IMG/VR virus record: IMGVR_UViG_3300027864_000205
Location: 1 to 64,000 of that record
Origin: a virus
Lineage: Duplodnaviria > Caudoviricetes
Reading direction: 5' to 3' (one strand)
DNA length: 64,000 nucleotides
Part shown: positions 26,902 through 54,619 of the stretch, piece after piece
Layout: every line of letters begins with the position of its first letter
Numbering within the stretch: the first letter of the stretch is position 1
Translations under genes and position numbers: made by a program
The notes under the pieces: generated by a model
Told to the model about the DNA's origin: nothing
Databases searched by the model: none
What the model saw: the letters and a program-made list of their open reading frames with translations, nothing else

Positions 26902-28707
26902 TTAGAACCCTCCTTCTCTTATAAGCCTTGTGATTTCTGCCGATAGCGGAGATAAAGTTACATCACTTATTGCTTCTGCAAAAGCTTCCCTATAAGCAAA
27001 TCCGAGCCCCTTCTTGTTGGCTACCGCCGAAACATAGTCAGAAATATTGAGCCACTCGTCGGCACTCATTCCGAGATTTGATAATGCTTTTTTAACAATC
27101 CTTGCCGACACATCGCCACTCTTTAACGACTGAAACGCAGCGACTCTATCTAACATGCCATTCAGGTCGGTGGCGGTGAAGTCTACTCCGCGCCCATTGA
27201 AAGTTTCAACGAAGTCAATTGCATGCGACACTTCATGTCGTAGAATCCCTGCGACTCCATTTTTTGAAGTCCAGTAGCCGCTATTTGTGTACTTGTTGAC
27301 CATTTCAGAGATAGAGTTTAGGTCCTGCATGTTCGCGACATTTAGTTTTAAGCTCGTGGTTATGTTTCCTTTGTCGCTTCTCACCGCAAATTCGGCAATC
27401 ATATCACCAGGTTCATTGACAGCCACTATTTTCTGCACTGAGCCCTTCAGTTGCGGAAACTCTTGATAAAGCCCCTCTAGGCTGTTGCCGACTGCATTTA
27501 ACACTTCATCAGACAACCCTGTTACCGCTACTTTTTGAGTGCCTATAGTCTCCTTTAACCGCGCTATTTCTTCGCGCCTACTTGTGAACGGTTTATTTAC
27601 TTCAATTATACCATCGGCTATGCTCCCTTGCAAGCCATTACCACCAATTCCAACCCCTGCGAAGCTTGCAGACGCTCGTGCGTCCATCACATTATCTTGA
27701 ATCACGCCGACTCGCGCCATGTTAGTCTGCTGCAACTCACGCTCCCATGCACCATCGTCTTCGTCTATGGCTTGTTGTTGTAACGCCTGTCTCTCTTCGA
27801 GAGATAATCCGAGTATGTTTTCGTTCACAACGGCTTGCATACAGCAATGACAGTTTATTCGTTCTTCCGGGGGAAGTATAGGGTCGCGAGGGAACATTGG
27901 GCTGAAGCCGTCAAGCGAGAAAGGTTCATTAACCGGCACACGTTGTCCGCTGATAGCGACATGGTTCTCGCGGGGGTCGTTCATGTGACCGCCTGTGTGT
28001 TTCCACCCCTTTTCCTCGACTGCCGGACTTTGTACATAAGATTCCTGCTGAGCTATGGAGTGCGCTGTGAGCATTTCGGTCACGGCAACACTTCTCGCCC
28101 TGTGATATTCGCTGCGTATACCGCCATCCATGAGTACCCTTGTAAACTCTGCCACGCTATGCCCTTGCGAGAGGCTTGTTGTAAGCGCCCTTTGTATCTG
28201 CCTATGCGAAGTGAGTTGCATTATTCCGGCAAGTTCCTCACTCCATTCCTCCGCCCACGCCGCCGTGCGCTTCGATATACGGTCAGCAGTATTGCCTGAG
28301 CCGAGACTTTTTGCTATGGTCGCTTCCGCAAGTTCGGGGTCTGTTTGAGCAATATAGTCTATGGTAAGTTCACAAACCATCTTCTCAAACTCATCATAGA
28401 ATATTTTGGTAAGCTTCTCCGCTGTGTCATCGGATGCGCGGATACCCTGCCAAACAAAGTCATTGAAGAACAGGAGGCCATCCGAAGCATTAAGTGCCTC
28501 TATTACTCTATTCGTAAATTCTTTCAAGCAACTTGCGACTTTTTCCTCACAAGCCGATATTTCTCCCACCGTGCCTTCGGCATCGGCAAAGCCGGCCTCG
28601 TCCAACGCCTCTACAAGATTGCTGTCTTCTTTAGCTATGTATTTGTCGATTGCCTCTATAAGTGGCTTGCAGTTGACTTTGCTCCAATCAATAACTTTCT
28701 TCGACAT
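26902..28707 (-). CDS. MuF-family minor head protein with a C-terminal HEXXH domain
   Basis: RARSVAVTEMLTAH, KGWKH, RENHVAISGQ and PPEERINCHC MuF motifs; then RHEVSH and EAFAEA. Confidence 0.88.
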   Translation of the reverse strand: MSKKVIDWSKVNCKPLIEAIDKYIAKEDSNLVEALDEAGFADAEGTVGEISACEEKVASCLKEFTNRVIEALNASDGLLFFNDFVWQGIRASDDTAEKLTKIFYDEFEKMVCELTIDYIAQTDPELAEATIAKSLGSGNTADRISKRTAAWAEEWSEELAGIMQLTSHRQIQRALTTSLSQGHSVAEFTRVLMDGGIRSEYHRARSVAVTEMLTAHSIAQQESYVQSPAVEEKGWKHTGGHMNDPRENHVAISGQRVPVNEPFSLDGFSPMFPRDPILPPEERINCHCCMQAVVNENILGLSLEERQALQQQAIDEDDGAWERELQQTNMARVGVIQDNVMDARASASFAGVGIGGNGLQGSIADGIIEVNKPFTSRREEIARLKETIGTQKVAVTGLSDEVLNAVGNSLEGLYQEFPQLKGSVQKIVAVNEPGDMIAEFAVRSDKGNITTSLKLNVANMQDLNSISEMVNKYTNSGYWTSKNGVAGILRHEVSHAIDFVETFNGRGVDFTATDLNGMLDRVAAFQSLKSGDVSARIVKKALSNLGMSADEWLNISDYVSAVANKKGLGFAYREAFAEAISDVTLSPLSAEITRLIREGGF

Positions 28708-30298
28708 CTGCATCCCCCTTGCCTTGCATATCACCGACATCGAGTAACAGTGAGCGAACTTCCTTCATAATGGCAGCTATATCTCTATCGCCACTCTTGG
28801 TCGCTTTCTCTATCTGTGCTGCAAGCTCCTCGGTTACAGACTCTGTAGTATCTAACCCTTTAAGCTTACCTGCAATTGCCACGGATGAGCGCAGATACGC
28901 CACAGGGATTTCGCCCCATTCGCCGGGGTAAGCTTCCGCTGTTTCTCCGAGGGCATTGTAAGCTATCTCTTTTGCTTTGTTAGGAGACAAGCCTCCGGCA
29001 CGTTCGCAGATAGAGAGTATTGCACTCAGGTCTTCAGGGTTTGTCACGTTAGGTGACTTGAAGTACGCCTCAACATACTTGAAATTATAGTCTTTGAGCA
29101 ACTTATGATTTATTACCCAAGCGAGACTGGCCCTCTCCGGTTGGAATACCTGCTCTTCCGTAATTTCCATAGCTGTCTGCGCCGTCGCACGGTTGAAGTC
29201 GGTCGTATATCCGACATAGAGGTCGGGGAGCAAAAATGCCGATTGAACCTTTTTGCGGTTATTATTCAGATAGTCCTGAAAGAGTTCGTCTTTCTGCAAT
29301 ATCTCTGCAAGCGGCACGGTCTGTATTTCGGGAGGTTTTTCTTGGTCGAGTAATGTAGTGGAATCTGCAGATTCAGCCTCCAGCACCATAAATGAATGCT
29401 GCCCGGATTCACCCTTGATATCGTTCATGTATGCTTTAAGTTTTTCGAAGCTACCATCTGACAGTTTGCCGTTCTTAATGAGTATGAGTAGCGGAGTGTG
29501 CCGCCCTTCCCCGAAGTAGCGGTTATTGAGTTCTTCTGCTTTGCGAGCGCCGTCAACTCCGAGTATTTGACCTATCCAGCGAATCTCTCCGTAAATCTCT
29601 GTGCCTATTGCGAACTCCATTATCTCATTCGCTTGATCCTCGGGCGCAAGCGCGTCAACGTACTTGCCAGTGGTTTTATTCATGATGCGCGGGTCGCCCA
29701 TCTCCTTAAAGTATACAGTCTTATTTCCGGTGGTCTGACGGTACTTGCAGAATTTACGCTTCCTTGTCTCAGTTTGCCCATTGATGTTGTAATCAACATC
29801 AACATAAGGCTCAAGAGGCGCAGTTTTGCGGATACTCTTTGTATTGATGATAAATTCTATACCGTCAACTTCCCCGCCGACGTTTCGGAGTGCTTCGATG
29901 TATGATATGCCGTAAGTCTCACGCGCCTCAATAACGTCCTCAAACACTTCTTTGGTGTCTTTATCCATGTTGAGCAGGTTTATTATATTTTCGGCCTTGG
30001 TGTATTCGTTTTTCATTTCAGGCGTTTCTGTTGAGTAGTCCATCTTGTATCTTACGCCGATACCAAACCCTGCAATATTGTATTTGTACGCTCGTATGCA
30101 CTGAGGGAGAATTGACGAATGCTTCACATGAATCGAAAGCCCTTCGAATTCAAGCGTAGGCTCTACCCACCCAAAAGCAAATGCGTCTGCCTGTTCCTTT
30201 ACCTGTGCCGACGTAGCTCCTTTTTCAACTGGTTGTTCGGCCGGGGAATCAGCTTTGACTATATGCACATTGTATGTTTTCAAGCTTTTATCAGACAT
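28688..30298 (-). CDS. Portal protein (XkdE/PBSX-like)
   Basis: NIAGFGIGVRY, YFGEGRHTP, DFNRATA; follows TerL. Confidence 0.9.
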   Translation of the reverse strand: MSDKSLKTYNVHIVKADSPAEQPVEKGATSAQVKEQADAFAFGWVEPTLEFEGLSIHVKHSSILPQCIRAYKYNIAGFGIGVRYKMDYSTETPEMKNEYTKAENIINLLNMDKDTKEVFEDVIEARETYGISYIEALRNVGGEVDGIEFIINTKSIRKTAPLEPYVDVDYNINGQTETRKRKFCKYRQTTGNKTVYFKEMGDPRIMNKTTGKYVDALAPEDQANEIMEFAIGTEIYGEIRWIGQILGVDGARKAEELNNRYFGEGRHTPLLILIKNGKLSDGSFEKLKAYMNDIKGESGQHSFMVLEAESADSTTLLDQEKPPEIQTVPLAEILQKDELFQDYLNNNRKKVQSAFLLPDLYVGYTTDFNRATAQTAMEITEEQVFQPERASLAWVINHKLLKDYNFKYVEAYFKSPNVTNPEDLSAILSICERAGGLSPNKAKEIAYNALGETAEAYPGEWGEIPVAYLRSSVAIAGKLKGLDTTESVTEELAAQIEKATKSGDRDIAAIMKEVRSLLLDVGDMQGKGDADVEESY

Positions 30299-30322: not shown

Positions 30323-31768
30323 CTATCTCTTATCTTTTGCCGCCGGTTTATCGTCCTTCAGGTTTACCGGGAGGCAGCAGAGAAGCAGACAATCAGCCTC
30401 ATCGGGTGATGGGAGTCCACGCTCTTTCATCGCCCTTTTGCTTTCCACCACTATCTTGTTGCGTCCGTTAAGCTCATATTTCCGTGACGAAAGCTGGGCA
30501 ATAAGATCTGAATCATTTGGCAATATTAAATCCACCGGTTTCTTTTTGCCCTCGTCATCAATCTGCGACAGACGGTCACGCACGAACGCCATCATTACCG
30601 TTGTGGAGTCGTGGTAGTAGGGGTGCTTACTATAGACTTTCCCAAAGTGGACGGGCAATACTTCAAGCCACCAGTAACGCTTGGGGTCGCTTGACTTTAT
30701 CTGGACAAGACGGTCAGTTACGCCACCACCTAAGCCGCCATCGTCTATCTTGACAGGAATCTTACGAGCGAACTTGTGCCTGTGCCTCAGTCGCTCGCCG
30801 AGCAATACGATTTCAGCAGCAGTCTTCATCAGGTTCTGCCCTCGTATTTTTTTATGAAATTTCATATGCTCATTGACTGTGTACCCGATTACCGTCTTGT
30901 CATCGCCGTACCGTGCAACGTCACACCCGATATGTATGCTATGCACTGGCACACCCTCGCCTTGCTCTGACTCGGGATCTGGTATATCCGTATACATGAC
31001 TGAGTTCTCTATGAGCGAGAGAGGTATGAATACATCATCTTCTTGCAGCGGGAAGTCTCCGCGTACCCTTACTCTGACGAAATTGCTTTCCTCTCCGTAT
31101 TTCCTGATATTTGCCTCGATGTTCTCTTTGTTTGTGCGCGAGCTTTTCAAAGCGTTTACCGTATGGCATTTATAGAGGTCACGGTCTGATGTATGGCTGT
31201 CATAAAATGTGCCTGCGGTCTTTGTAGGGTTGCCGCACATCAAGAGCTTGTTGTTATCGCCGGATAGGGTGCCAAGTATAGCTTCCATGATAGGCTCAGC
31301 CACGCCGGAAGCTTCGTCCACTATAAAGAGCATATTGTCTTCGTGGAATCCTTGCATATTTTCTGGCTTGGTTGCAGTCCTCGCTACTGCGAACCACCGC
31401 TTCTCCATGCCTACCATGTATATATATGTTTTAGTCCATTTCAGAATAGCAGAGAGCAACGGACTTCGTGCTTGCCATTTTGCGACCTCGGCCCACAACA
31501 CGTCATGCAACTGTTGGCGGGTTGGTGCCGTTGCTACCACGCGGGGAAAGGGGAAGCATGTTAGAAACCAGAGAAGTACCGCTGCTTCAAGTCCTGTTTT
31601 TCCGACACCTTGACCACTCTTTACCGAAACCCTTTTTGATACTGCGAGATCCATTGCCGCAGCAGCTTGCCAATCGTCAGGCTCAAAGGTGAGTACTTCT
31701 CGAAAGAACAGGACAGGGTCTTTTTGGTACATCTTCTGCCTCTGCTTGAAAAAATCATTTCTATTCAT
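30323..31768 (-). CDS. terL: Terminase large subunit
   Basis: VKSGQGVGKT Walker A; IVDEASG Walker B; CGNP coupling motif; DVARYGDD and SPDEAD nuclease motifs. Confidence 0.95.
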   Translation of the reverse strand: MNRNDFFKQRQKMYQKDPVLFFREVLTFEPDDWQAAAAMDLAVSKRVSVKSGQGVGKTGLEAAVLLWFLTCFPFPRVVATAPTRQQLHDVLWAEVAKWQARSPLLSAILKWTKTYIYMVGMEKRWFAVARTATKPENMQGFHEDNMLFIVDEASGVAEPIMEAILGTLSGDNNKLLMCGNPTKTAGTFYDSHTSDRDLYKCHTVNALKSSRTNKENIEANIRKYGEESNFVRVRVRGDFPLQEDDVFIPLSLIENSVMYTDIPDPESEQGEGVPVHSIHIGCDVARYGDDKTVIGYTVNEHMKFHKKIRGQNLMKTAAEIVLLGERLRHRHKFARKIPVKIDDGGLGGGVTDRLVQIKSSDPKRYWWLEVLPVHFGKVYSKHPYYHDSTTVMMAFVRDRLSQIDDEGKKKPVDLILPNDSDLIAQLSSRKYELNGRNKIVVESKRAMKERGLPSPDEADCLLLCCLPVNLKDDKPAAKDKR

Positions 31769-32624
31769 CGCCAGCACCGATGAGGGACTGTATCCACTCG
31801 ACTGCTATAATGTTTTGCGTAGATTCGCTCTGACTTTGCTTGAGCCTATTCAAGGATTCGATACATTTTCGCTTTTCAGACTGAACTCTCGAAAGTTCTG
31901 CATGGGCGCGTAGCAGCAAGTCGGTGCTATCCCGTGTGATTGTATTTACACTATATGTATGCCCCGGCAGACGCTTATCAGCTTCAACTTTTTCTGTTAT
32001 TCTCTGCTGGTACAATTCTTTCTCTGCATCATTTGCGAACTCGCGAAGTGTCTCTCCCCTAATAACTTGGTCAATCATAAGTCCTCGCGAGACGTTACCG
32101 AAGTTTTGGATTTGTTGTATTTTGTCTAACAGCCAGCGTTCCCTTATTGTGAGGATTGCAATTTGTTCGTTCAGTATACTCTCTTCATCGGTAAGCACTG
32201 CAACCATCCCATTAAACAGTTTAAGGTCATGCTCGGACAATATGTCCGAGTACGGATTAGGGCGAGAGTATATGCCGTGCGTTTCTGCAAGAGTATTGCC
32301 TGGTTGCAAGTTAGGCTTGCCCCCTTTATTGCCTACTGCGTTTTTATTGCCTAGTGGCGCTCCGCGCTTCTTGGCTGGCGTTCCCTCTTGTGGTGCGCTC
32401 CCTTTCGAAGTGGAGCGTTCCACTTGTTTTTTTTTCGACGATTTTGTGGGGCGTGCGCTGCCGCTCGACTTTTTGCCGTCCCAGTTGTCGAGAGACTTCC
32501 ACTTGCGAACTTTGGCTGCGGGAACTCCTAGATGCGCAGCAATGTCCACAAGCTTGACCGAGCCACCCTTATCATGGTACATCTGCTCGGCTTTTATCCT
32601 TTCTTCACTCTTAGGACTTGGCAT
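31761..32624 (-). CDS. terS: Terminase small subunit
   Basis: N-terminal HTH KLVDIAAHLGVPAAKVRKWKSLDNW; GAPLGNKNAVGN; THGIYS. Confidence 0.9.
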   Translation of the reverse strand: MPSPKSEERIKAEQMYHDKGGSVKLVDIAAHLGVPAAKVRKWKSLDNWDGKKSSGSARPTKSSKKKQVERSTSKGSAPQEGTPAKKRGAPLGNKNAVGNKGGKPNLQPGNTLAETHGIYSRPNPYSDILSEHDLKLFNGMVAVLTDEESILNEQIAILTIRERWLLDKIQQIQNFGNVSRGLMIDQVIRGETLREFANDAEKELYQQRITEKVEADKRLPGHTYSVNTITRDSTDLLLRAHAELSRVQSEKRKCIESLNRLKQSQSESTQNIIAVEWIQSLIGAGDE

Positions 32625-32772
32625 ATTGCTCCACCTCGTAGTCGAATTAGTGTGTGTTCCTCGGCTTAGTTGCTGGGTCGGGGCAAAAACTCGCAACCTC
32701 TCCCCAACATGGTCAAGCGACCTTTTAAGTTGACAGGCTGGGTGTCCGCAAGTATGAACACCCAGCCATAAC

Positions 32773-33294
32773 CTAAATATTTGTAAGCAGTTCCGCAGGG
32801 CTGTAACTCACATCTTTCTTGACCATCATAGTCAGGAAGTCTTCTTTTGAGAAATCGGAGAGCCTGAATATTTCCTCTGGCTTCATACCGAGTTGCTTGC
32901 TTATTTCCTCGACACTCTTGCCATCAACCATGAGCCTCCGTATGATAGCTTTCATCGGTTCAAGTAAGTGTACTCCGCGTGCCCTGTTATGTGTTATCGT
33001 GCCATAGATATTCTCGCTCTCGCCGTCGTGCTTAACAATGACAATCGGAACCTTGCCTCCAAGCAGAGACCAAAGGGGTTCTTCTCCCGACACGGTCCAA
33101 CGGTGGAAGCCGTCGATTATAACCATATCAGGATTTACGACAATTGGTAGTGTCCATCCATTCGTCAATATGGACTGTGTGAGTAGTTTCAGGTTTTCCT
33201 TTGATACTCGATTCGGGTTGTAGTCGTTAGCTTTTAGCAACTTTCTGTCCACCCATGCAAGCGTTGATAAAGGGGTAAAAACATTATTTTTCAT
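32773..33294 (-). CDS. ParB/Srx-like protein (IbrB-like)
   Basis: LKANDYNPNRV...IIDGFHRW...TITHNRARGVH. Confidence 0.88.
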   Translation of the reverse strand: MKNNVFTPLSTLAWVDRKLLKANDYNPNRVSKENLKLLTQSILTNGWTLPIVVNPDMVIIDGFHRWTVSGEEPLWSLLGGKVPIVIVKHDGESENIYGTITHNRARGVHLLEPMKAIIRRLMVDGKSVEEISKQLGMKPEEIFRLSDFSKEDFLTMMVKKDVSYSPAELLTNI

Positions 33295-34436
33295 TTTGCC
33301 ACTACCTCCCGTGCTTTTTTCGCATTGTCTATGTAGCGGCCGTATATCCTATTGAAGAGCGCCCTGTATGCCCTGAGTTTTGGGTCGCCCCTTATAAGTG
33401 ATTCGTAGATTTCCCGAAAGTCACGTTGCGATGCTATTGCTGATACCTGCATGAAGAAGTTCCGGTATCTGATTGCTGTTTTCAGCTTGCTTGGTGTGTT
33501 GAAGTTTTGCACCATGTTGGCGAACAGGTTTATAAGCAAAGCTTTGTAATCTTTCTGCTCTTTACCTTCCATTTCACGCCTTGTTTTGGTGCGCCTCCCG
33601 AACATTTCAGAATCCCAATAGAGTGTAGCTAAATATGCGTTTGGTTCTCTTTTCGTTATACGCTCCATCAGGTCCGGGTAGTATTCATTCATCTGCACAA
33701 GACTCTTTGCTGTATCAACACTGAAGAACTGCGATACCCTGAGTTGGCTTTTTGAGGTGCCAGTCTGCCAAAGGTAGAGGTATATTTCGGGGATTTCTAC
33801 TCTCTGCTCGAGCAGATATTTCCACACGTCATTGTTTGTCCAGTCGTATATGGGGAATATCTGCCTTTTGTTGGTCATCTTCTTTCCAGCCATTGTCATG
33901 GTTGCGAGATTCTTTAATCGCTGTATTGATTCCGCTGCGCGTATGCCGACGATTGTCATACCGTCCATACACATACGCGGTAGCCAATCTTGGTACGCAT
34001 CTTTCCTCGGTCTGAGCATTGGGTGTTCCGTTATTGCGAATGATGGAGGTCTTCTTACCCAAACATCTTCTTTTGTTCGGTCCCAGCATATAAAGCTTTC
34101 ATCTTCCGAGAGTTCATTGAAGCAATTAAAATGCTTCACTTCCACACAATACCACTCGAAGGAGGCGCCGACCGCAATGAATTTTCTGCGCCAAGCTTTC
34201 ACCGTGTCCTCAATGCACTTGAAGATAGCTTCTTCGTCTACAAAGTGTACGACGAGCTGTTCGGCTTTGATTTTACCGTGCTGTATCAGGTTCATTACGA
34301 CCTGTGCGAGTGCGAGGCTGTCTTTTCCTCCGCTAAAGCTCATGTAGACAGGCACTCCGTTGTCAAAGACGTTTTTGATGCGCTGCTCTGCCGCTGCAAC
34401 CACATCAATATCGGCTATACATCGTTTTATAGCCAT
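33291..34436 (-). CDS. PAPS-reductase-like PP-loop protein (IbrA-like)
   Basis: SFSGGKDS, GIRAAESIQR, PIYDWTNNDVW. Confidence 0.88.
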   Translation of the reverse strand: MAIKRCIADIDVVAAAEQRIKNVFDNGVPVYMSFSGGKDSLALAQVVMNLIQHGKIKAEQLVVHFVDEEAIFKCIEDTVKAWRRKFIAVGASFEWYCVEVKHFNCFNELSEDESFICWDRTKEDVWVRRPPSFAITEHPMLRPRKDAYQDWLPRMCMDGMTIVGIRAAESIQRLKNLATMTMAGKKMTNKRQIFPIYDWTNNDVWKYLLEQRVEIPEIYLYLWQTGTSKSQLRVSQFFSVDTAKSLVQMNEYYPDLMERITKREPNAYLATLYWDSEMFGRRTKTRREMEGKEQKDYKALLINLFANMVQNFNTPSKLKTAIRYRNFFMQVSAIASQRDFREIYESLIRGDPKLRAYRALFNRIYGRYIDNAKKAREVVAK

Positions 34437-35017
34437 ATTTCACTATTGCAATGAGGACAGATTATTCGCTTATCACTTTCGGCATCCCCCGCTTGCGGCT
34501 CTGCAGGGTTCACTTCAACGCTCGGCGGCGCCATCATCGCTTCTTTCTTTACACTTCCAGCGTTGATTTGCGCTATTTCCTCCGCGCCTATTTTGCCGTA
34601 CTCGCCTATTTTCTTTGAAATCTCGCTTGCATCGGCTACCATGGAGCGAAGTATATCTTCATCGAAGCCAGGCACATCAAGGTCGTGCTTGAGTTCATCT
34701 AGAAATGTGTTAAATGTGTCAAGATCGTCTATACCGAGCCCATAAATCTTATTGTCGGCTATCATCAGTTTCTTTTTCTGATTCTCCGAAAGACCGGATA
34801 CTCTGTAGAAGTCACCTTCTGTACGGCCGAGTAGTTGTAGGGTGTCGTAACACCCTACTCCCGCCATGATTGTATTGTTTTCGTCGATGACTATCGGACG
34901 TATCTGCCCGAACATCGTTATGCTGCGCCCAAACTCATGTAACTGCTTTTCTGTATGTATGCGCACGTTACGTTCAGGCTTCTTGATATCGGCAAGAGGA
35001 AGGCGTTCGATTTTCAT
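34427..35017 (-). CDS. ParB N-terminal-domain protein with a C-terminal CPHC zinc knuckle
   Basis: NVRIH...FGQIRPIVIDENNTIMAG...MIADNK; ICPHCN. Confidence 0.85.
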   Translation of the reverse strand: MKIERLPLADIKKPERNVRIHTEKQLHEFGRSITMFGQIRPIVIDENNTIMAGVGCYDTLQLLGRTEGDFYRVSGLSENQKKKLMIADNKIYGLGIDDLDTFNTFLDELKHDLDVPGFDEDILRSMVADASEISKKIGEYGKIGAEEIAQINAGSVKKEAMMAPPSVEVNPAEPQAGDAESDKRIICPHCNSEIWL

Positions 35018-35793
35018 GCGCCCACCACCTCTATATACCGCTTTGCTCCCGGAAGCACCGTTGCAGCCTCGCGTACTATGTCGGGGTCAATTTCAAAGAC
35101 CTCTTTCCAACCGTTGTCCTCGTTTTTGGTATACTGACGTGCAGGCCATGGGTGGGTACCGCAAACATATCCACTGTGCCAGTCGTATATAGGCGGCATT
35201 GGTAATTTATGGTAATGGCAGTATGCAAGTACCTGTTCGTGCGACCACTCGGAGAGTGGACTATAGCGTGTAACACCGTTACCCGCCATGTATATGTTCG
35301 ATTTCCGACCGACATAGTTACCATCAGCCCGCCTTCTGCCAAGTAACAGAAAGTCTAAGCCTTTTGATTTGTAATATAATTGCTGCGCCCTGTGTTGCAC
35401 AATAGAAAACCATTTAGCCGCGACTGCGCTATTTTGCGGGAAGAGCATTTTCGGGTTTTTTGCAAGCCATTCGAGATTTAAGCCTACATTAATGACTTCG
35501 CAACTTTTGGGTTTGTTTTCCTGTATCCATTGAATAAATGCAGGGTATTCAAGGTCGCAGACACCAATCATGCTTTCGTGGATACCGGCACTCTCGCAAA
35601 CATGACCGAGTACAATGCTGTCCTTGCCGCCTGACCATGCATAAGCGGACTTTTTCCCCTTGACCGTTTTCTTAATTGCTTTTACGGTCTCGGTTGTGAG
35701 CTTTTCTACTTCCTTCAAGGAGACAAGGCTCTCTATGTTTTTAAGCGTTTCGAGCCACGCTCCGTTATCAGTTCTTTGCTTTTTACCCAGCAC
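35014..35793 (-). CDS. Second PAPS-reductase-like PP-loop protein
   Basis: AWSGGKDS, LGRRRADGN, PLSEWSHEQV; GTG start after a GGAGG SD. Confidence 0.82.
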   Translation of the reverse strand: MLGKKQRTDNGAWLETLKNIESLVSLKEVEKLTTETVKAIKKTVKGKKSAYAWSGGKDSIVLGHVCESAGIHESMIGVCDLEYPAFIQWIQENKPKSCEVINVGLNLEWLAKNPKMLFPQNSAVAAKWFSIVQHRAQQLYYKSKGLDFLLLGRRRADGNYVGRKSNIYMAGNGVTRYSPLSEWSHEQVLAYCHYHKLPMPPIYDWHSGYVCGTHPWPARQYTKNEDNGWKEVFEIDPDIVREAATVLPGAKRYIEVVGA

Positions 35794-37162
35794 TTCGACG
35801 CACCTCCCATCTTGAAACAATGAGAGCTATTGCGGCACTAAGCAACACAGTTGTCAGGCTTCCTATCGTTCGAAACATCGCTACCCCCGCAATATTACCG
35901 TATGCAAATATTGGAAGTCCGACAACAAGAGAAGTTAGTATGCCATAAAACATACCTTTACCTGTAAGTTTCTTACCTAAAAGTGTCAGTATCGTTGGCA
36001 GTAGTGTAGATGCCCTCTGTGTGCCATAGAGCAAAAACAGGTACGTGATGGTTATGCCCGGGATATTCGCAATTATTATCGCGAGTATCAGGGTGGCCGC
36101 CATAACAAACTTTGATTTTTTCGCTTTGTCATAATCGGTCGTGAATGATGCTGCTGCAACTAAACTGCTATCCACTGTCGAGAGCAGTCCCGAAATGACC
36201 ATAAACATGAATGGCGCGAGTGTCCAAGCCGGGAATCTGTATATTATGAATTCGAGGTTTACCACTCCTGTATCGGACGGGGTGAAGCCTGAACCTGCCG
36301 CAACAAATCCGAGTATAGCCATGCAGATAGGCACAACTGCGAATAGAAATGCTCCTATCCTGAACGATGCACCCACTTTATCGGACTTAATGGAAAATGC
36401 TCTTTGCCAAAAGCTCTGATCTCCAAATGGACCTGATAAAAGCCCTATAGTCGATGGCAAGCCAAAGCCAAGGAAGAGTGCGAGCCCAGCCTCGCTGATA
36501 AGACTGCTGTACTGCCCGGACACTGATGATAAGCCTCCGACAAAATCACTCATTCCCGTGCCGCTGGTCAGAGTAGTTACTGCAAATGCAACACTGGTTA
36601 CAATCATTATAACCATCTGTACCGCGCCAGTTGTCATTGAAGCCTTTATCCCTGAGAATTGCGAGTACGAAAATGCAATAACAGCCAATATGATTGTCAA
36701 TAGCCAAAAGGGAAGCCCTGTTGTCACCTCTAACATACGCCCGCCGGCGAGCAACTGTACGGCTGCTGCAAACATCGAAAGCATGGAGAGTTGGACTTGA
36801 TATATCCCCCGGACTTTTGGGGAGTCATACTTCTCGCCCATGAATGCAGAAAGCGTGATGCCGTTCGGCATCTGAGCGCGTATCCGCTTTGCATAAAACG
36901 AGAAAAGGATTAAGCATGCCACATTAGGCACAAGAAACCAGAAAACGCCCGGCCAGCCCGTGAGGAAAGCCCTCTCTGCCGACACGAAAAGAGCAGGAGC
37001 CCATATCCATGTACACCCTATACAGAGCGAAGCCTTGACTAGACCCATTTTCCTGTTACCAACATGAAAACTCTCATCGCCACAGTCCGTCTTTTTAGTA
37101 AAGCCTATCGTGACAATGAGCATTAGTGCTGTGTAAACTAATAATATTATGATTCCGTTCAT
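35783..37162 (-). CDS. Sodium:solute symporter (SSS) family transporter
   Basis: About 13 hydrophobic segments; FHVGNRK, GDQSFWQRAFS and GLLSTVDS motifs; AAGGAGG SD. Confidence 0.9.
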   Translation of the reverse strand: MNGIIILLVYTALMLIVTIGFTKKTDCGDESFHVGNRKMGLVKASLCIGCTWIWAPALFVSAERAFLTGWPGVFWFLVPNVACLILFSFYAKRIRAQMPNGITLSAFMGEKYDSPKVRGIYQVQLSMLSMFAAAVQLLAGGRMLEVTTGLPFWLLTIILAVIAFSYSQFSGIKASMTTGAVQMVIMIVTSVAFAVTTLTSGTGMSDFVGGLSSVSGQYSSLISEAGLALFLGFGLPSTIGLLSGPFGDQSFWQRAFSIKSDKVGASFRIGAFLFAVVPICMAILGFVAAGSGFTPSDTGVVNLEFIIYRFPAWTLAPFMFMVISGLLSTVDSSLVAAASFTTDYDKAKKSKFVMAATLILAIIIANIPGITITYLFLLYGTQRASTLLPTILTLLGKKLTGKGMFYGILTSLVVGLPIFAYGNIAGVAMFRTIGSLTTVLLSAAIALIVSRWEVRRSAG

Positions 37163-37235
37163 TTATCGGAATCCTCCTTTTTTAGAATGTTGTTCCTCAA
37201 TAGCCCGTCATTGGCGACATACCGGGTTTTCGAGG

Positions 37236-37268
37236 TTACGCTACATCAAGGAGCAGATACAGCGTCAT
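37236..37268 (-). CDS. Possible 10-aa leader micro-ORF (MTLYLLLDVA)
   Basis: AAGGAGG SD 5 nt before ATG, in the late-operon leader. Confidence 0.3.
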   Translation of the reverse strand: MTLYLLLDVA

Positions 37269-37290
37269 TCTCGCCTCCTTCCAACATAAA

Positions 37291-37418
37291 ATGCACCACC
37301 CCTCGGCGAAAGGGGTGGCATGGCGATACAAGTTTTACCTGCGGAGGGTTCTCCACGCATTAAGAATATCATATCTCGTTCGCTTCGTATTGTGTCACTT
37401 TGGCGCATCTTGGCGCAT
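37291..37418 (-). promoter_or_regulatory. Putative late promoter region
   Basis: Direct repeat ttggcgcat at 37400-37408 and 37410-37418 in the 3' end of the regulator gene; TGaTATTCT extended -10; hairpin at about 37291-37320. Confidence 0.5.
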
Positions 37419-37814
37419 ATTTCCGAAAAATGTTTTTATTTTCCTATCAATCTGGCTTTTTGAATACCCAATAATCTTTGCAGTTGCCTCAACTGTGTGC
37501 AACTCAATGTACCGGCGTGTGAGTATTTGTCTCATTATGCTATCGTCAACACCTTCTATGAACCTCTCCACTTCCGTACACTCGTCTTCATATCTCTTAG
37601 CTCGCGCTCTGAGCCGGGGTCCTGCCTTTTTGACGTATCCCTTGATAGCAACCACATGCTTGGAGTATGGCGGCTCGTTTGACGATGCGAGTACAGTATC
37701 TGTTATTTCACATGCATCTTCGCTTGCTATCTGCTCTTCGAGCATAATTATTTCACTACGGATATTTCCGTAGTTTTCAATTCTACGCCGAGTCATTGGT
37801 ATAGCATTTTTCAT
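37395..37814 (-). CDS. RinA/ArpU-like late transcriptional regulator
   Basis: VERFIEGVDDSIMRQILTRRYIELHTVEATAKIIGYSKSQI C-terminal HTH; last early gene. Confidence 0.8.
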   Translation of the reverse strand: MKNAIPMTRRRIENYGNIRSEIIMLEEQIASEDACEITDTVLASSNEPPYSKHVVAIKGYVKKAGPRLRARAKRYEDECTEVERFIEGVDDSIMRQILTRRYIELHTVEATAKIIGYSKSQIDRKIKTFFGNMRQDAPK

Positions 37815-38998: not shown

Positions 38999-39832
38999 TT
39001 ATAGCTCTGCGAATTTTAGTTGTTGTGATGCCTCGTAGTTGCACCAAAGTGTCTCTGTTCTTTCGGTTGCAGATTCGGTATGGCAAGTGGTTTCATACCG
39101 ATGCCAGTCGGCAAGAGTGTCCTCGTAAAGCGGACTTTTGTATGCCGAGAGCAGTACAGGCCCGCAATGTTCCATCAGGAGTGCTAACAGTTTTCTATGT
39201 TGCTCGTTTGTGAACTCATGTTTGTATATTCTCCCGTTACGTGTTTCCATCAAATATGGTGGATCTGCGTATATCACACAGTTATGTTGATTGTGCCGTC
39301 GTATAATCTCAAAGGCATCAATATTATCTATTTGCACTATGTTATTAGGGGAGGCGTGTTTAAGCCTTTGGCATATAGCTAGTATGTTACTAGGGATATT
39401 TGTGCAGAATCTGGCAACATTTCCATTTGCAGCCTTTATATTTTTACGCCAACCTGTCTTAGTGGAGGATTTTGCACCGATTGCTTGCCACATACGCACT
39501 ATAAACCGTCGCGCACGCTCAACATCATCTATTTCCCCGCTATCAGAATACGATTCCGCATATTCTTCTCTCGCCCATGGCGTAAGGTACACGGCTCTCG
39601 CCAATTCTTCCGGATAATCTCTTGCCATCCTGAAAAGATTTACAACATCGCTGTCGAGGTCGTTAATTGTTTCCACTTTCGACCGCTCTTTTGTGAAGAA
39701 CACTGCGCCAGACCCAAAAAACGGTTCAAGGTATGTCATGCGCTCGTAACCAGCAGGGAAATGCTCTACTATCCACGGAGCAATAGTCCATTTACTGCCC
39801 GGATATTTGAGAATGTTCTTGTTTGGTCTCAT
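38999..39832 (-). CDS. DNA adenine methyltransferase (Dam/D12 class)
   Basis: LKYPGSKW, YLEPFFGSGAV, INDLD, YADPPY. Confidence 0.93.
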   Translation of the reverse strand: MRPNKNILKYPGSKWTIAPWIVEHFPAGYERMTYLEPFFGSGAVFFTKERSKVETINDLDSDVVNLFRMARDYPEELARAVYLTPWAREEYAESYSDSGEIDDVERARRFIVRMWQAIGAKSSTKTGWRKNIKAANGNVARFCTNIPSNILAICQRLKHASPNNIVQIDNIDAFEIIRRHNQHNCVIYADPPYLMETRNGRIYKHEFTNEQHRKLLALLMEHCGPVLLSAYKSPLYEDTLADWHRYETTCHTESATERTETLWCNYEASQQLKFAEL

Positions 39833-41570
39833 TTGCCCTCACTTTCAGGCTATCGACAATCTTTTTCATGTGTACGGTAGCTACTGCCTGCGCAATCGCC
39901 TTGTCTGCCTCAGTTTCGCCCTTGTCACCCATGATTCCGTTGAACTGTTCTATCTTTTGACCGAGAAACTCCTGTATGACTTCATCGGTGCCTTCCTCTG
40001 CCACAAGATAGTAGCAAAGCACGCTATCTGTTTGCCCGATACGGTGAGCCCTGTCCTCAGCCTGAGTATGTATTGCCGGCGACCAATCGAGTTCCCCAAA
40101 CACAACACAGGTTGCCCTTTGGAGATTTAGACCGGAGGATGCTCGAAGGCTTATCATGCATAAGTTTGTATCTCCGTTCATAAAGGCGTTGACCGATTCC
40201 TCTTTTTCTTTTGAACTTTGCCGACCTGTTATCATCACCGGACTGTGTGATTCAAGCACTTCTGCATACTCATCAAATACTTTGTGGTGGTACGCAAATA
40301 CCAAGACAGCTTCTCCTGCTTCAAGTAACATTTTGAGAAATGTCGCCACATATGGAGCTTTTGCAATGCCTATTGCCTGACGGCTTTCGCGCACAATTTC
40401 CCTTGTCATACGCCCACGTTCAAAATAATCCTCGACACTGCCTATCCGGCCCGCCATAGAGACTGCGTTGTGTATGAGTTCAGAATACATGCCACTGTCA
40501 AAATCAACTGTCTGGATAACTCTGCGTTTAGGCGGCAATTCTTTGAGAACTTCATCTTTCGTTCTTCGGAGCATGAGCCCTTCTCGCCTCAGATAATCTC
40601 CCAAGAGGTCAGGATCTCTCACGATGTCGTTGCCGTATCCATAGCACCACTCTCTTGTAAAACTCTCCCAGTCACCCAAACAATGATACTCAATGATGTT
40701 CATAACTGCCCACATTTCGCCGCCTCGGTTATGTATCGGTGTGCCCGATAACCCTATAACATCGGGAACACTAGAGGCCAACAAGGATGCTGAACTGTAC
40801 TTTTCTGTGCCTGTATGCCTTAACTCCTGTATCTCATCAAATATAACGGCTTTGAAGTCATAGTCCTGTAATGCTGTCTTCCACCCCCGGAGAAGGAGAT
40901 AATGCACAATGTATATGTTCGCAGGTGGCAATTCATATGGGGTAAGCCCCTTCAGTACATGCACCGTTTCAGGTTTATCAAACATACTTAACTGGTCACC
41001 AGCTCCGGGAAGTTTTAGAAAACGCTTTATTTGCGGTACCCAGTTTGTTGTGATTAAATGCGGTTGTACCACAATGACCGCAGGGTACGCATTTTTCGCA
41101 GCGAGGAAAGCGAGTGCTTGAATAGTTTTTCCTAACCCCATTCCATCAGCAAGCAGTGCGCGTTCTGTTCCGAGCAAGTACGAAAGCCCCTCTTTTTGAA
41201 ATTCCCTTAGTTTTCCGATAAATTCAGGTGGTGCTTCTGCTTTGTTCGGCCGTTCATTGAATTCACGTATACGTACTGCATGATCGACCGCTTCCTGATA
41301 ACTTTTTCCCCACGCCTCTTTGTCAATTATTTCGAGAGGGTAGCGTAGCATAAGCCAATTAAGATTTTCGGCATTTCTTTTGGTTGCCGGGAATTTGCAA
41401 TGGCGGCTACCCCTGCCGACAGAGCCCGGAAATATACGCTTAACTACCTGCACCATCCCGGGTTCTCCCGCAACTATCCATTGAGTAATCCTTCCATTCA
41501 CGATGATAGGTTCAAGGGTGCCGTATGTTTCTTTGCTTTCCGGCAATTTTTGCAGATACGCGGGAATCAT
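39792..41570 (-). CDS. SNF2-family helicase/ATPase
   Basis: LLADGMGLGKT, IFDEIQ, LSGTP, QAEDRAHRIGQ. Confidence 0.93.
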   Translation of the reverse strand: MIPAYLQKLPESKETYGTLEPIIVNGRITQWIVAGEPGMVQVVKRIFPGSVGRGSRHCKFPATKRNAENLNWLMLRYPLEIIDKEAWGKSYQEAVDHAVRIREFNERPNKAEAPPEFIGKLREFQKEGLSYLLGTERALLADGMGLGKTIQALAFLAAKNAYPAVIVVQPHLITTNWVPQIKRFLKLPGAGDQLSMFDKPETVHVLKGLTPYELPPANIYIVHYLLLRGWKTALQDYDFKAVIFDEIQELRHTGTEKYSSASLLASSVPDVIGLSGTPIHNRGGEMWAVMNIIEYHCLGDWESFTREWCYGYGNDIVRDPDLLGDYLRREGLMLRRTKDEVLKELPPKRRVIQTVDFDSGMYSELIHNAVSMAGRIGSVEDYFERGRMTREIVRESRQAIGIAKAPYVATFLKMLLEAGEAVLVFAYHHKVFDEYAEVLESHSPVMITGRQSSKEKEESVNAFMNGDTNLCMISLRASSGLNLQRATCVVFGELDWSPAIHTQAEDRAHRIGQTDSVLCYYLVAEEGTDEVIQEFLGQKIEQFNGIMGDKGETEADKAIAQAVATVHMKKIVDSLKVRANETKQEHSQISGQ

Positions 41571-42043
41571 AAGGCAATCCCCCATTGCTTCTGCAAGCCT
41601 ATTACAACACACGGCTTGCCGTTACTGGTTTCAGGTATTGGATTTCTCAGGCTTGAAGCCACGGCTATCACCACCGCTTCCACTATGTCAAACTCAGCAT
41701 AGCGGCTCACCTGCGCTTCAAGTCTCGCCCAGTTAGGCTTGCCTTTCTTGACCTCAACCACTACTGCCGATGTTACTGCCAGTTCGCCACTTACCCAGCA
41801 AAGGAAGTCCGCTCGGCATCCGCGACCTAGCTTATACTCTCTTATGTGCTGAATGCCATGCTCGGCTAATATCTCAGAGATTTTATTTTGCAAAGCAGAC
41901 TCGGCAATGGTAACGCCTACCCGAAGGGTCTTTAGTGCCTTTTCAATTTTGTCAACAGTCTCATTCATGTCCATACTACTCCATTCGTAAATTTTGCAAA
42001 GTAACTCTGTATCGCCATAACTTTGATTGTCCTGTGCGCTCAT
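41567..42043 (-). CDS. PD-(D/E)XK-like nuclease
   Basis: ESALQNKI...REY...RADF...VEVK pattern. Confidence 0.65.
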   Translation of the reverse strand: MSAQDNQSYGDTELLCKIYEWSSMDMNETVDKIEKALKTLRVGVTIAESALQNKISEILAEHGIQHIREYKLGRGCRADFLCWVSGELAVTSAVVVEVKKGKPNWARLEAQVSRYAEFDIVEAVVIAVASSLRNPIPETSNGKPCVVIGLQKQWGIAL

Positions 42044-49054: not shown

Positions 49055-50872
49055 CTATCCCGCCATTTCTTCCATTAGTTTTGACATTGTCACTATCTTC
49101 TTTCCACACAGCTCTGGAAGGTTTGCTCTGACAATTGCCTCTGAAAATGGCGGCGGTACCGCATTCCCACAACGGGCAACTTGTGCCGCTTTACTTATCG
49201 GTGAGCCCAATGCACCAGCATCTATCACATAATCAGACGGAAAAACCTGAGCATTAAAAAGCTCTCTAGGTGTGAGCATTCGCAAGCCTATGTCGGTTAT
49301 TGCATACTGCTGACCGCGTATAGTAACAAGCCCTAAGCGGTCTTTTGATGTGATGGTATGTGTCGGGGCGGTTATATCTTGCGCATCATCACCGCCGTAA
49401 TATTTAATCAACAACGCTCTAACTTCGCCGAAATGCCCTGCACTTGTGAGTATCGTATTGAGTGGTTCTCTGAGGTCTTGACCGTTGCTGTTATTGCGAA
49501 ACAATGTGAGTTGCGAAGTGATTAGTGCGTTATGGTCGATTGCAGTTACTGTGTTTAGCGGGTCTGTGACACTGTTTCCTTTTCCATCATAACCGCCACT
49601 ATAGTATTTACTAAGAAAAGACATCACCACGCCGTAGCGGTTCTCGGTGTCCACGGTCAGTAATGGTTTCTCTATTGACTGACCTCTGGTTTCGTCCTTG
49701 CCTTGCTCGTCGTGATACTGAATGAGTGTCGGTGTGACAAGTATATTGCGACCACCTGTTGTTACTGTCGGCAAAGGCTCGTTTGCACCAGTAGGCACGT
49801 TATCACTCATGTTTGGTACGATGCATGGAGTAACGCTTGCTTCAATCACACATTGCTCTGCTTTGGAAACGATTGTTCTGACAGGCTCATCGACGGGATA
49901 CGACCTGTCGCTGGTAAAGCCAGTATGTCCTATTGCAGTCATCGTCGGAACAACAATCCCAAGCCCATTTTTTCCAGTCATTGTGTTAGTAGGCTCACCT
50001 ATGCTATGACCTCTAAAATCATCACCGCTTCTGTTCACCTGCACAACAAAAGGCTCAGGATTGTCGAGTACAAATTTCTTTATCCCTCGCGCAATGCGCC
50101 TAAGTGTTTTTTCTGCAAGAGGTCTTACAGCTCTCACACCATACTGCTGTTGAATTTCCGCAGAGCTTGCGAATATGGAAGGACACGGAAGATTCCAGTC
50201 AATTATCTCTGCGGCTGTGCGCCACGGTTTCAGCTTGCCGCTTTTAACGGCTTCGCTGTCCGGGGCACCGTGCGTAGGTCGGGGCCAGACTATAGGCGCA
50301 TCGTCACACCGAGCAATCAAGAAAAGTCTCTTGCGTATCGTTGGTGCCCCATAGTCGCATGCCCTAAGCTCTTCCCACTCCACTTTGTAACCGTGATGTT
50401 TTAGTGCATTCACAAAGCTGTGGAATGTATGCCCTTTCTTTTCTTTGACAGGGTGTCCTGCTTTGTCAAGCGGACCCCAATCCTTGAATTCTTCTACATT
50501 TTCCATAGCAATCATTCTCGGCCGGACAGTTGCCGCCCATCGCACAGCTACCCATGCAAGACCCCTAATCTCTTTTTTGCGCGGCTTTCCACCACGCGCC
50601 TTGCTGTGGTGCGTGCAGTCAGGCGAGAGCCATACAAGTGCGACTCGTCGCCCTGCGGTCACTTGCCGAGGGTCAACTTCCCATACATCCTCACAATAAT
50701 GCTTTGTGTATGGGTGGTTGCGCATGTGCATAGTTATTGAATCAGGGTCGTGGTTAATCGCTATATCCACAGGTCGCCCGGTGGCAAGTTCAATGCCTGT
50801 AGATGCGCCTCCTCCTCCTGCGAAATTATCAACTATTAACTCATCGAATATTGAGGTTTGTTTTTTCGTCAT
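49055..50872 (-). CDS. C5 DNA cytosine methyltransferase
   Basis: DNFAGGGG, SPDCTHHS, MENVEEF, RKRLFL and CGNAVPP motifs. Confidence 0.95.
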   Translation of the reverse strand: MTKKQTSIFDELIVDNFAGGGGASTGIELATGRPVDIAINHDPDSITMHMRNHPYTKHYCEDVWEVDPRQVTAGRRVALVWLSPDCTHHSKARGGKPRKKEIRGLAWVAVRWAATVRPRMIAMENVEEFKDWGPLDKAGHPVKEKKGHTFHSFVNALKHHGYKVEWEELRACDYGAPTIRKRLFLIARCDDAPIVWPRPTHGAPDSEAVKSGKLKPWRTAAEIIDWNLPCPSIFASSAEIQQQYGVRAVRPLAEKTLRRIARGIKKFVLDNPEPFVVQVNRSGDDFRGHSIGEPTNTMTGKNGLGIVVPTMTAIGHTGFTSDRSYPVDEPVRTIVSKAEQCVIEASVTPCIVPNMSDNVPTGANEPLPTVTTGGRNILVTPTLIQYHDEQGKDETRGQSIEKPLLTVDTENRYGVVMSFLSKYYSGGYDGKGNSVTDPLNTVTAIDHNALITSQLTLFRNNSNGQDLREPLNTILTSAGHFGEVRALLIKYYGGDDAQDITAPTHTITSKDRLGLVTIRGQQYAITDIGLRMLTPRELFNAQVFPSDYVIDAGALGSPISKAAQVARCGNAVPPPFSEAIVRANLPELCGKKIVTMSKLMEEMAG

Positions 50873-50916
50873 ACCTATCTTTCCTCCATTTTTCAAAAAT
50901 TGGACAAGGCTCATCT

Positions 50917-54427: not shown

Positions 54428-54619
54428 CTATTTTGTTGTGTATTCGCCGTCCTTGAATATCTCGATATAGTGAATGTTCGGCGAATTTTGCTTTCCTTCT
54501 TGCTTCTCCTTACCGAAACGTACCATGTATCCTGCTTTCAGTAGCAGTTGCCCAAGGGCAAGTCTGTCTTGCTCGTTCAAGGTTCCAAGCTTCTGACTGA
54601 ATATCTTGTAGCTCATCAC
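54428..54619 (-). CDS. Small conserved phage protein
   Basis: DRLALGQLLLKAGYMVR motif. Confidence 0.7.
   Translation of the reverse strand: MMSYKIFSQKLGTLNEQDRLALGQLLLKAGYMVRFGKEKQEGKQNSPNIHYIEIFKDGEYTTK

Follow-up and report, generated by a model that had tools for sequence, protein, structure and literature searches.

Why would a phage place a membrane transporter, two PP-loop enzymes and two ParB/Srx proteins directly ahead of its terminase genes? The question is raised by five genes in the window, by which we mean the whole 64-kb stretch analyzed here, taken from the 73.9-kb IMG/VR virus record IMGVR_UViG_3300027864_000205. These genes (SSS, PAPS1, ParB1, PAPS2, and ParB2) recur together elsewhere, and related phages use the same position for known DNA-modification modules. 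We interpret them as an importer-fed, ParB-assisted module for the covalent modification of the phage's DNA at about the time of packaging, a reading that we regard as evenly poised between right and wrong. Gene content and neighborhood lead us to infer a supply of substrate to the enzymes by the importer, DNA as their target, adenylation as the chemistry, and a protective product.

The five-gene cassette and its linkage

The first-pass annotation of this DNA had proposed five overlapping, translationally coupled genes between a RinA-like regulator and terS, the gene for the small terminase subunit. All five open reading frames (ORFs) were confirmed on the minus strand at 32773–37162, in the order SSS, PAPS1, ParB1, PAPS2, ParB2, followed by terS, terL, and the portal gene. 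Every coordinate and junction agrees with that description, and profile matches identify both flanks.

35783–37162, minus strand: sodium:solute symporter (SSS) family protein, 459 amino acids (aa); PF00474
35014–35793, minus strand: PAPS1, compact PAPS-reductase-fold PP-loop protein, 259 aa; PF01507, E 9e-9
34427–35017, minus strand: ParB1, ParB-N protein, 196 aa; phrog_620, E 1e-42
33291–34436, minus strand: PAPS2, IbrA/YbdN-family PP-loop protein, 381 aa; PF01507, and phrog_2302 at E 6e-90
32773–33294, minus strand: ParB2, IbrB/YbdM-family ParB/Srx protein, 173 aa; phrog_2159, E 5.5e-67

SSS is preceded by a strong ribosome-binding site (GGAGG, 37177–37173) and overlaps PAPS1 by 11 nt (35783–35793), its TAA stop lying at 35785–35783. 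The longest PAPS1 ORF would begin at TTG 35820; the most likely start is GTG 35793, which has GGGAGG 9 nt upstream and yields a product whose 259 aa fit the lengths of its homologues. ATGA motifs join PAPS1 to ParB1 (35017–35014) and PAPS2 to ParB2 (33294–33291), and between them the PAPS2 ATG at 34436 overlaps the ParB1 end by 10 nt (stop 34429–34427).

To ask how stable this arrangement is, we collected IMG/VR loci through their SSS homologues and counted those with at least 3 kb of downstream DNA (n = 67); neighboring-gene coordinates in the compared loci come from simple ORF calling. PAPS2 and ParB2 accompany SSS in 63 of the 67, together with PAPS1 in 48 and without it in 15. The cassette is also found in 30 loci of species-representative genomes, from Bacillota plus one Chloroflexota and one Bacteroidales. 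Cultured lysogens whose prophages bear it include Otoolea muris DSM 111138 (L098) and Lachnospiraceae bacterium JLR.KK009 (L099), and PAPS1 occurs in Flavonifractor porci. Since it recurs in both sets, the five-gene arrangement is far from chance. The importer, which the first-pass annotation had treated as a fixed part of the cassette, does co-occur with the enzymes in the viral and the genome loci alike.

Gene order varies with the linkage kept: L074–L081 read ParB1-SSS-PAPS2-ParB2, and L183–L193 read SSS, a ~200-aa signal-peptide protein, PAPS1, ParB1, ParB2, PAPS2. The signal-peptide protein (e.g., L183:4473–5081) occurs in Bacteroidota-type loci, belongs to no known family and may be an outer-membrane component. 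Several copies are decayed: in L100 (Eubacterium plexicaudatum ASF492) PAPS1 is split by ~3.3 kb of inserted DNA, and in L132 (Parablautia sp.) SSS is broken into two ORFs; L014 and L296, described below, are further cases.

These data bear on the idea that the transporter is a lysogenic-conversion gene (moron) serving the host and stands beside IbrA/IbrB-type genes by accident. In L014 the enzymes are deleted and SSS is retained directly before terS, as such a gene might be, and cellular SSS homologues exist without ParB or IbrA. Against it stand the stop/start overlap that joins SSS to PAPS1, the co-occurrence in 63 of 67 loci, the survival of the linkage when gene order changes (L074–L081), and the finding, described next, that a replacement importer takes the same position. 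We consider an accidental neighbor extremely unlikely.

A search based on PAPS2 splits its relatives clearly: at 39% identity or above, the gene immediately upstream almost always encodes an importer, and at or below 31% the IbrA/IbrB pairs lack one. The importer is an SSS, a shortened SSS, or a permease of the NitT/TauT-type ATP-binding cassette (ABC) class with a binding lipoprotein. The shortened proteins (331–366 aa, 7–8 transmembrane segments) belong to no Pfam family and align with SSS in hhalign (98.3%, E 1.6e-14); a count of three unrelated importer types was therefore rejected in favor of two independent classes, SSS and ABC. The ABC variant (L160, L162, L171, and L296, the last with a different terminase family) combines the permease with an NMT1/SsuA/ThiY-class lipoprotein and has no ATPase of its own. 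The lipoprotein is encoded at L160:5490–6425, L162:580–1536, and L171:2797–3789. Its binding proteins match SsuA_fam at E 1e-31 to 5e-33, but at 107–115 bits they stay below the cut-off of 163.5. Their class spans sulfonates, taurine, nitrate, bicarbonate, and pyrimidine precursors, with no family score reaching its cut-off; the best solved relative, 3qsl, is annotated merely as a putative exported protein, and the gene context of a chromosomal homologue (L294) is uninformative. An apparent PAPS1::permease fusion in L296 was discarded as a frameshift, as its middle 120 residues are an Arg/Pro-rich out-of-frame translation. Because the importer is exchanged and its position kept, transport itself is a conserved feature of the cassette, and the soluble binding protein of the ABC variants offers a direct route to identifying the imported compound.

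One phage lineage (L181/L182:567–8621) carries two tandem SSS copies before ParB1-PAPS2-ParB2. Just upstream are a gene resembling CTP_transf_3 cytidylyltransferases (E 1e-11) and one for an ABC permease, a setting that may hint at a precursor of the sugar or acid-sugar type.

The slot upstream of terS

If the cassette acts on DNA, what stands in its place in related phages? We define the slot as the interval between a ~190-aa upstream protein (40–71% identity) and terS in phages with orthologous TerS and TerL (56–71%). In 33 loci with enough upstream DNA, the slot holds the present cassette 18 times, a short-SSS variant once, and, in one locus, an IbrA/IbrB pair accompanied by a ParB and a protein of unassigned family; five loci, plus shorter ones, hold a ParB-N module with an established DNA-modification enzyme, and six hold none. 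The established modules are ParB::N6/N4-methylase fusions (L220, L222, L223, L225), ParB with a C5-methylase (L219), ParB with a TAGT glycosyltransferase and a UDP-sugar dehydrogenase-like protein (L277, L280), and ParB with a DpdA-like protein (phrog_887, E 2e-50) and a Vut_1/YhhQ importer (E 2e-48; L292, L293). The cassette occupies a genuine exchange slot, and the DNA-modification role suggested by the first-pass annotation is better grounded now that related phages are seen to hold known modules of this kind there.

The slot of L236 (3916–7047) contains a further version of the module, with no importer: a distant IbrA/IbrB pair comes first, then a 211-aa protein of no known family, and then a ParB1-like protein.

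ParB1 connects the cassette to the other occupants of the slot. It is 47% identical (E 2e-44) to the ParB domain of a same-slot ParB::N6_N4 methylase and 33% identical (E 2e-19) to the ParB of the DpdA/YhhQ cassette, and it matches phrog_498, 'DNA methyltransferase', at E 2e-26. Pfam gives no match for it at E 0.01, whereas the comparable same-slot fusions in L222 and L223 match PF02195. The usual GHGR box is mostly G-N-G-L in the ParB1 family and G-V-G-C in the protein of the window, which carries a C-terminal CxxC motif.

The importer of the DpdA cassette provides a second parallel. Hutinet et al. (2019; PMC6884629) note that YhhQ, which transports preQ0, is encoded by some of the phages that have DpdA, so that a phage importer feeding DNA modification has a precedent.

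The proteins and their proposed working

The second enzyme pair can be placed in a family. PAPS2 aligns along its whole length with E. coli YbdN in hhalign with probability 100 (E 4.9e-40) over 341 columns, reaching YbdN residue 375 of 406; Pfam reports PF01507 alone for it, the IbrA/YbdN architecture being PAPS_reduct plus DUF3440. ParB2 is 39% identical to E. coli YbdM (BLASTP, E 4e-29) and scores 20.1 bits against PF02195, below the cut-off of 26.3. By these comparisons PAPS2 and ParB2 are clear members of the IbrA/IbrB (YbdN/YbdM) family. The FSGGKDS and GxRxxES motifs of PAPS2 are invariant, as are the DGxHRW and HNRARG motifs of ParB2, which has no Cys. No Cys of PAPS2 is invariant in an 18-sequence alignment; four are 86–89% conserved, among close relatives only. 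The AlphaFold2 model of PAPS2 (predicted local distance difference test score, pLDDT, 78) matches generic PP-loop folds only. PAPS2 is the core enzyme of the cassette and ParB2 its core partner.

We found no functional study of this cassette or of IbrA/IbrB chemistry in the searchable literature. The family is not known to have any phenotype but a regulatory one: in E. coli ECOR-9, IbrA/IbrB reportedly activate prophage eib genes (Sandt et al., 2002). The five genes might accordingly form a regulatory module, either an IbrA/IbrB-type co-activator of prophage gene expression or a packaging-initiation factor that binds DNA in the vicinity of pac or of the late promoter; the transporter would then provide an environmental signal. 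The family assignment of PAPS2/ParB2 and the location between the late regulator and terS agree with such a role. The invariant catalytic-type motifs (PP-loop and GxRxxES; DGxHRW/HNRARG) point instead to an enzyme, the swapping of unrelated importers fits substrate supply better than signaling, and phages with the same terminase and upstream protein manage without the cassette. We therefore judge a regulatory module very unlikely.

PAPS1 and ParB1 are of a different kind. The first-pass annotation had listed two PAPS-reductase-like PP-loop enzymes and two ParB/Srx proteins. The SGGKDS motif is indeed present in both enzymes, but the two pairs are not alike: PAPS2/ParB2 are an IbrA/IbrB pair, and PAPS1 and ParB1 are different proteins. 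PAPS1 shares 23% identity with PAPS2 (E 9e-4) and the similarity of ParB1 to ParB2 is not significant, and on these values a tandem duplication of a PP-loop/ParB pair was rejected. PAPS1 carries a WSGGKDS motif and matches phrog_424 (E 5e-33). With 1710 clusters of PAPS1 homologues at 90% identity, the cassette is common in phages of gut/rumen Clostridia and of Bacteroidota. Its AlphaFold2 model (pLDDT 93.8) is nearest to the folds of CysH/APS reductase, CysD, TtuA, and the GMP-synthetase ATPPase, with the PAPS domain of FAD synthase also among the closest. Searches of the PDB, whether by sequence or by fold, yield generic PP-loop relatives only for PAPS1 and PAPS2 alike. Cys75, Cys88, and Cys220 (numbered from TTG 35820) are 89–94% conserved among close relatives; the Cys of the C-terminal CGTH, 89% conserved, recalls the ECGLH of CysH, a likeness that is suggestive only.

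Do the enzymes handle sulfur? As auxiliary metabolic genes, a sulfonate or sulfate importer and two PAPS reductases could boost host assimilation or thiolation. Both Pfam and PHROG label the proteins 'PAPS reductase', the binding protein of the ABC variants is of the SsuA/TauA class, and PAPS1 has three fairly conserved Cys, including that of CGTH, and CysH and APS reductases as its nearest folds. Yet NCBIfam models for CysH, CysD, and APS reductase give 17–34 bits against cut-offs of 154–413, the SsuA-family scores likewise fall short (107–115 vs 163.5), and 15 of the 63 viral cassettes do without PAPS1. PAPS2 lacks an invariant Cys and both enzymes have a canonical ATP-pyrophosphatase PP-loop, while the obligatory ParB partners and the DNA-modification slot would go unexplained. 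Sulfur chemistry is unlikely in PAPS2 and neither favored nor disfavored in PAPS1; sulfur metabolism as the purpose of the whole cassette appears highly improbable.

What is imported? Judged by its profile match, the transporter is a member of the sodium:solute symporter family (PF00474, TC 2.A.21): it matches PF00474 at E 4.7e-16 with 59 bits (cut-off 22.8) across profile positions 1–404 of 406, has 12 hydrophobic spans, and aligns with E. coli PutP in hhalign at 97.2% probability over 377 columns. The Ser-Thr of its TM8 segment LLSTVDSS, largely conserved in the family alignment, aligns with the Ser-Thr of PutP VMSTLS, which we take to be Ser340/Thr341 of the Na2 site; PutP Asp55 is not conserved. 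Its closest PHROG, phrog_20720 (E 1.7e-156), is listed there as of unknown function. The match to TIGR00813 has E 2e-26, but its 93 bits lie below the cut-off of 184, and no model of a characterized SSS subfamily reaches its cut-off (PanF 55 vs 328 bits, PutP 47 vs 515). A quick tree of the SSS proteins does not separate the deep branches. The best sequence relatives in the PDB are DUR3 urea symporters, at E 3e-7 and over the N-terminal part only. An amine substrate, which the first-pass annotation had called plausible from a likeness to DUR3-type urea/polyamine carriers, finds little backing in so weak a similarity, and the SsuA/TauA/ThiY-class binding proteins of the ABC variants do not point to amines.

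Cellular relatives of the symporter also bear on the mechanism. In Planctomycetota, Spirochaetota, Pseudomonadota, Aminicenantes, and a Clostridia metagenome-assembled genome (MAG), the SSS homologue is directly preceded by an AsnB-like protein with the N-terminus MGALFG, without the glutamine-hydrolyzing Cys. In Patescibacteria and one Xanthobacteraceae MAG, it lies near a 365-aa protein of no Pfam family with an invariant SGGIDST, which aligns with the PP-loop region of PAPS2 (hhalign 93.8%, E 2e-7) and looks like a member of an unnamed PP-loop family. This SSS subfamily thus adjoins PP-loop enzymes in cells too, which argues that the transported solute takes part directly in adenylation, as a co-substrate.

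Two of these cellular arrangements recur. A four-gene cluster in several phyla (L110, L111, L114, L120, L121, L126, L133; e.g., L120:4782–9401) comprises a 326-aa zinc-ribbon/Toprim-like protein, a TPR lipoprotein, the AsnB-like protein, and an SSS homologue with 43–48% identity. The SGGIDST loci are L106, L108, L109, L116, L117, L122, and L127 (e.g., L117:5680–9362); those of Patescibacteria also hold a 230-aa protein of no family, and no Pfam family was found among the neighbors there.

As the cellular SSS/PP-loop pairs have no ParB neighbor, importer/PP-loop chemistry does not need DNA. The solute and ATP could instead go into producing or changing some other product, be it a small molecule, a nucleotide, an RNA, or a protein; an anti-defense metabolite and a modified nucleotide pool are examples. 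The ParB/Srx proteins would then act as NTPases or phosphotransferases, and NTPase as well as nuclease activities do occur among such proteins (reviewed in PMC10853773). The closest PAPS1 folds (PAPS/APS reductase, CysD, and the PAPS domain of FAD synthase) act on small molecules. On the other side, the slot otherwise holds DNA-acting enzymes, every one of them accompanied by a ParB-N helper to which ParB1 is a close relative, and DNA functions linked to packaging typically lie immediately ahead of terS. We regard a non-DNA target as unlikely.

The DNA-modification reading suggests the following working. The late activator would switch on the operon, and the symporter would accumulate an exogenous solute across the membrane. 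PAPS2, with PAPS1 as an accessory where present, would use ATP to adenylate the solute or a group on the DNA; the two would then be joined with release of AMP and pyrophosphate. The first-pass annotation had DNA adenylated first; we hold this order and the reverse, with the solute first, to be equally open. ParB-type proteins would bring the enzymes to DNA, ParB2 as the obligatory IbrB partner and ParB1 as the same kind of ParB-N helper that accompanies phage methylases and DpdA. The modified DNA would be packaged and resist host nucleases in the next host. In this scheme IbrA-type PP-loop enzymes would be DNA-modifying ligases that attach an imported metabolite via an adenylated intermediate, a possible role that we propose tentatively.

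Several points weigh against the DNA-modification reading. The phenotype reported for IbrA/IbrB is regulatory, not chemical. The phage already has Dam-type, C5, and DUF4942 methylase-like genes, so extra protection is not obviously needed. An importer expressed late has little time before lysis. ParB1 may be only an adaptor, as the Arg of the GxxR box is mostly lost in its family. RNA, nucleotides, or protein are possible targets, and position does not identify the substrate.

Should DNA modification prove correct, it would add a new class of hypermodification chemistry to phage anti-restriction and provide a first function for IbrA/IbrB (YbdN/YbdM of E. coli K-12) and for the PP-loop-linked SSS subfamily. 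In that case, how infective the phage is would hinge on a compound that the gut environment offers.

Setting in the phage and comparison with known systems

The 73.9-kb record, which CheckV rates as complete, probably comes from a termite-gut metagenome. It encodes a tyrosine integrase (73042–73539 of the record), which indicates a temperate phage. The following features flank the cassette or lie elsewhere in the window.

37395–37814, minus strand: 139-aa late regulator, RinA-like/sigma-like, bordering the cassette on its left; phrog_36, E 4e-12
37294–37320, minus strand: GC-rich terminator-like hairpin after the regulator gene, from a pattern scan and the sequence
32736–32767, minus strand: 9-bp GC-rich hairpin, GGCTGGGTG...CACCCAGCC, without a T-run, between ParB2 and terS
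31761–32696, minus strand: terminase small subunit, terS; PF10668, E 3e-14, and NF040601, E 5e-32
30323–31777, minus strand: terminase large subunit, terL; phrog_2, E 8e-38
28688–30298, minus strand: portal protein; PF04860, E 2.8e-10
38999–39832: Dam-type N6-adenine methylase
39792–41612: SNF2 helicase
49055–50914: C5-cytosine methylase
53350–54414: DNA polymerase III beta clamp
54616–56481: PcfJ-like protein
57087–59036: DUF4942 protein (methylase-like)

The regulator also matches phrog_248, 'transcriptional activator' (E 1e-6), gives a weak Sigma70_r4 match, and shares 43% identity with its positional counterpart in L216. A pattern scan found no sigma-70 consensus promoter in the gap between its gene and SSS, and we presume that 37163–37293 holds an activator-dependent late promoter plus the ribosome-binding site. 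The two GC-rich hairpins bracket the cassette and may be attenuation or processing sites. The most likely terS start is ATG 32624, as NF040601 matches from residue 25 and homologues begin MPRA(K/R)S; the ParB2-terS gap would then be ~148 nt, including the 9-bp hairpin. TerL has 568 relatives in IMG/VR.

How does the cassette relate to systems already described? E. coli IbrA/IbrB, with the K-12 paralogues YbdN/YbdM, resemble PAPS2/ParB2 in being adjacent and overlapping in the same order, and the phage pairs of phrog_2302 and phrog_2159 ('PAPS reductase + ParB-like nuclease') belong to the same families. The cassette of the window differs in adding a dedicated importer as well as one more PP-loop protein, itself unrelated, and one more protein of the ParB-N kind.

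Like the cassette, the DNA-phosphorothioation proteins DndB/DndC and SspD combine a ParB-superfamily protein with a neighboring PP-loop enzyme of the PAPS-reductase superfamily, one that works on DNA. The resemblance to DndC and SspD noted in the first-pass annotation holds at the level of the superfamily and does not extend to membership: PAPS2 matches DndC in PADLOC at E 5e-10 over ~50 residues and, again over ~50 residues, scores 30.4 bits against TIGR03183, whose cut-off is 290.4. PADLOC yields only weak DndC, BrxP, and MTase-ParB matches on the cassette. The same annotation had seen no cysteine desulfurase in the window, and a scan of the entire 73.9-kb record, in which every control was positive, gave no PF00266 match, though a host enzyme could still serve. 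Neither DndD nor DndE, at which no dedicated search was aimed, is seen among the annotated genes. On the low score, the lack of an invariant Cys, and the lack of a phage cysteine desulfurase, Dnd/Ssp membership was rejected. Assignment to CysH-type PAPS/APS reductases was rejected as well: both PP-loop proteins score 16–24 bits against cut-offs of 154–254, and PAPS2 has no ECGLH-type Cys.

The proposed chemistry is modeled on TilS, GMP synthetase, QueC, and TtuA-type PP-loop enzymes, which adenylate a base or a carboxylate before attack by a nucleophile. They share the PP-loop motif and fold with PAPS1 and PAPS2 and serve as a template for adenylation. The likeness is one of fold only, and none of their substrate-binding domains occurs in the cassette; Foldseek matches of the two proteins (TilS, TtuA, NcsA, LarE, and the GMP synthetase ATPPase) have TM scores of 0.3–0.6 at 10–18% identity.

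ParB-N::methylase fusions (phrog_498; PF02195 + PF01555) occupy the same slot, and their ParB domain is the one 47% identical to ParB1. In contrast to these fusions, ParB1 stands alone, mostly lacks the Arg of GHGR in its family, and is paired with PP-loop enzymes rather than an S-adenosylmethionine-dependent methylase. The ParB + DpdA + YhhQ cassettes for 7-deazaguanine have the same architecture and slot, in phages whose TerL is 58% identical (L292, L293). Their enzyme is a TGT-type transglycosylase, whereas that of the window is a PP-loop ATP-pyrophosphatase, and TGT (PF01702) is absent from the 73.9-kb record; their importer belongs to COG1738 and not to SSS. Since both enzyme and importer are of another class, a different precursor and a different chemistry are expected. 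The cassette would be an importer-joined form of ParB-assisted phage DNA-modification modules and of IbrA/IbrB pairs, with a real chance that its chemistry is new.

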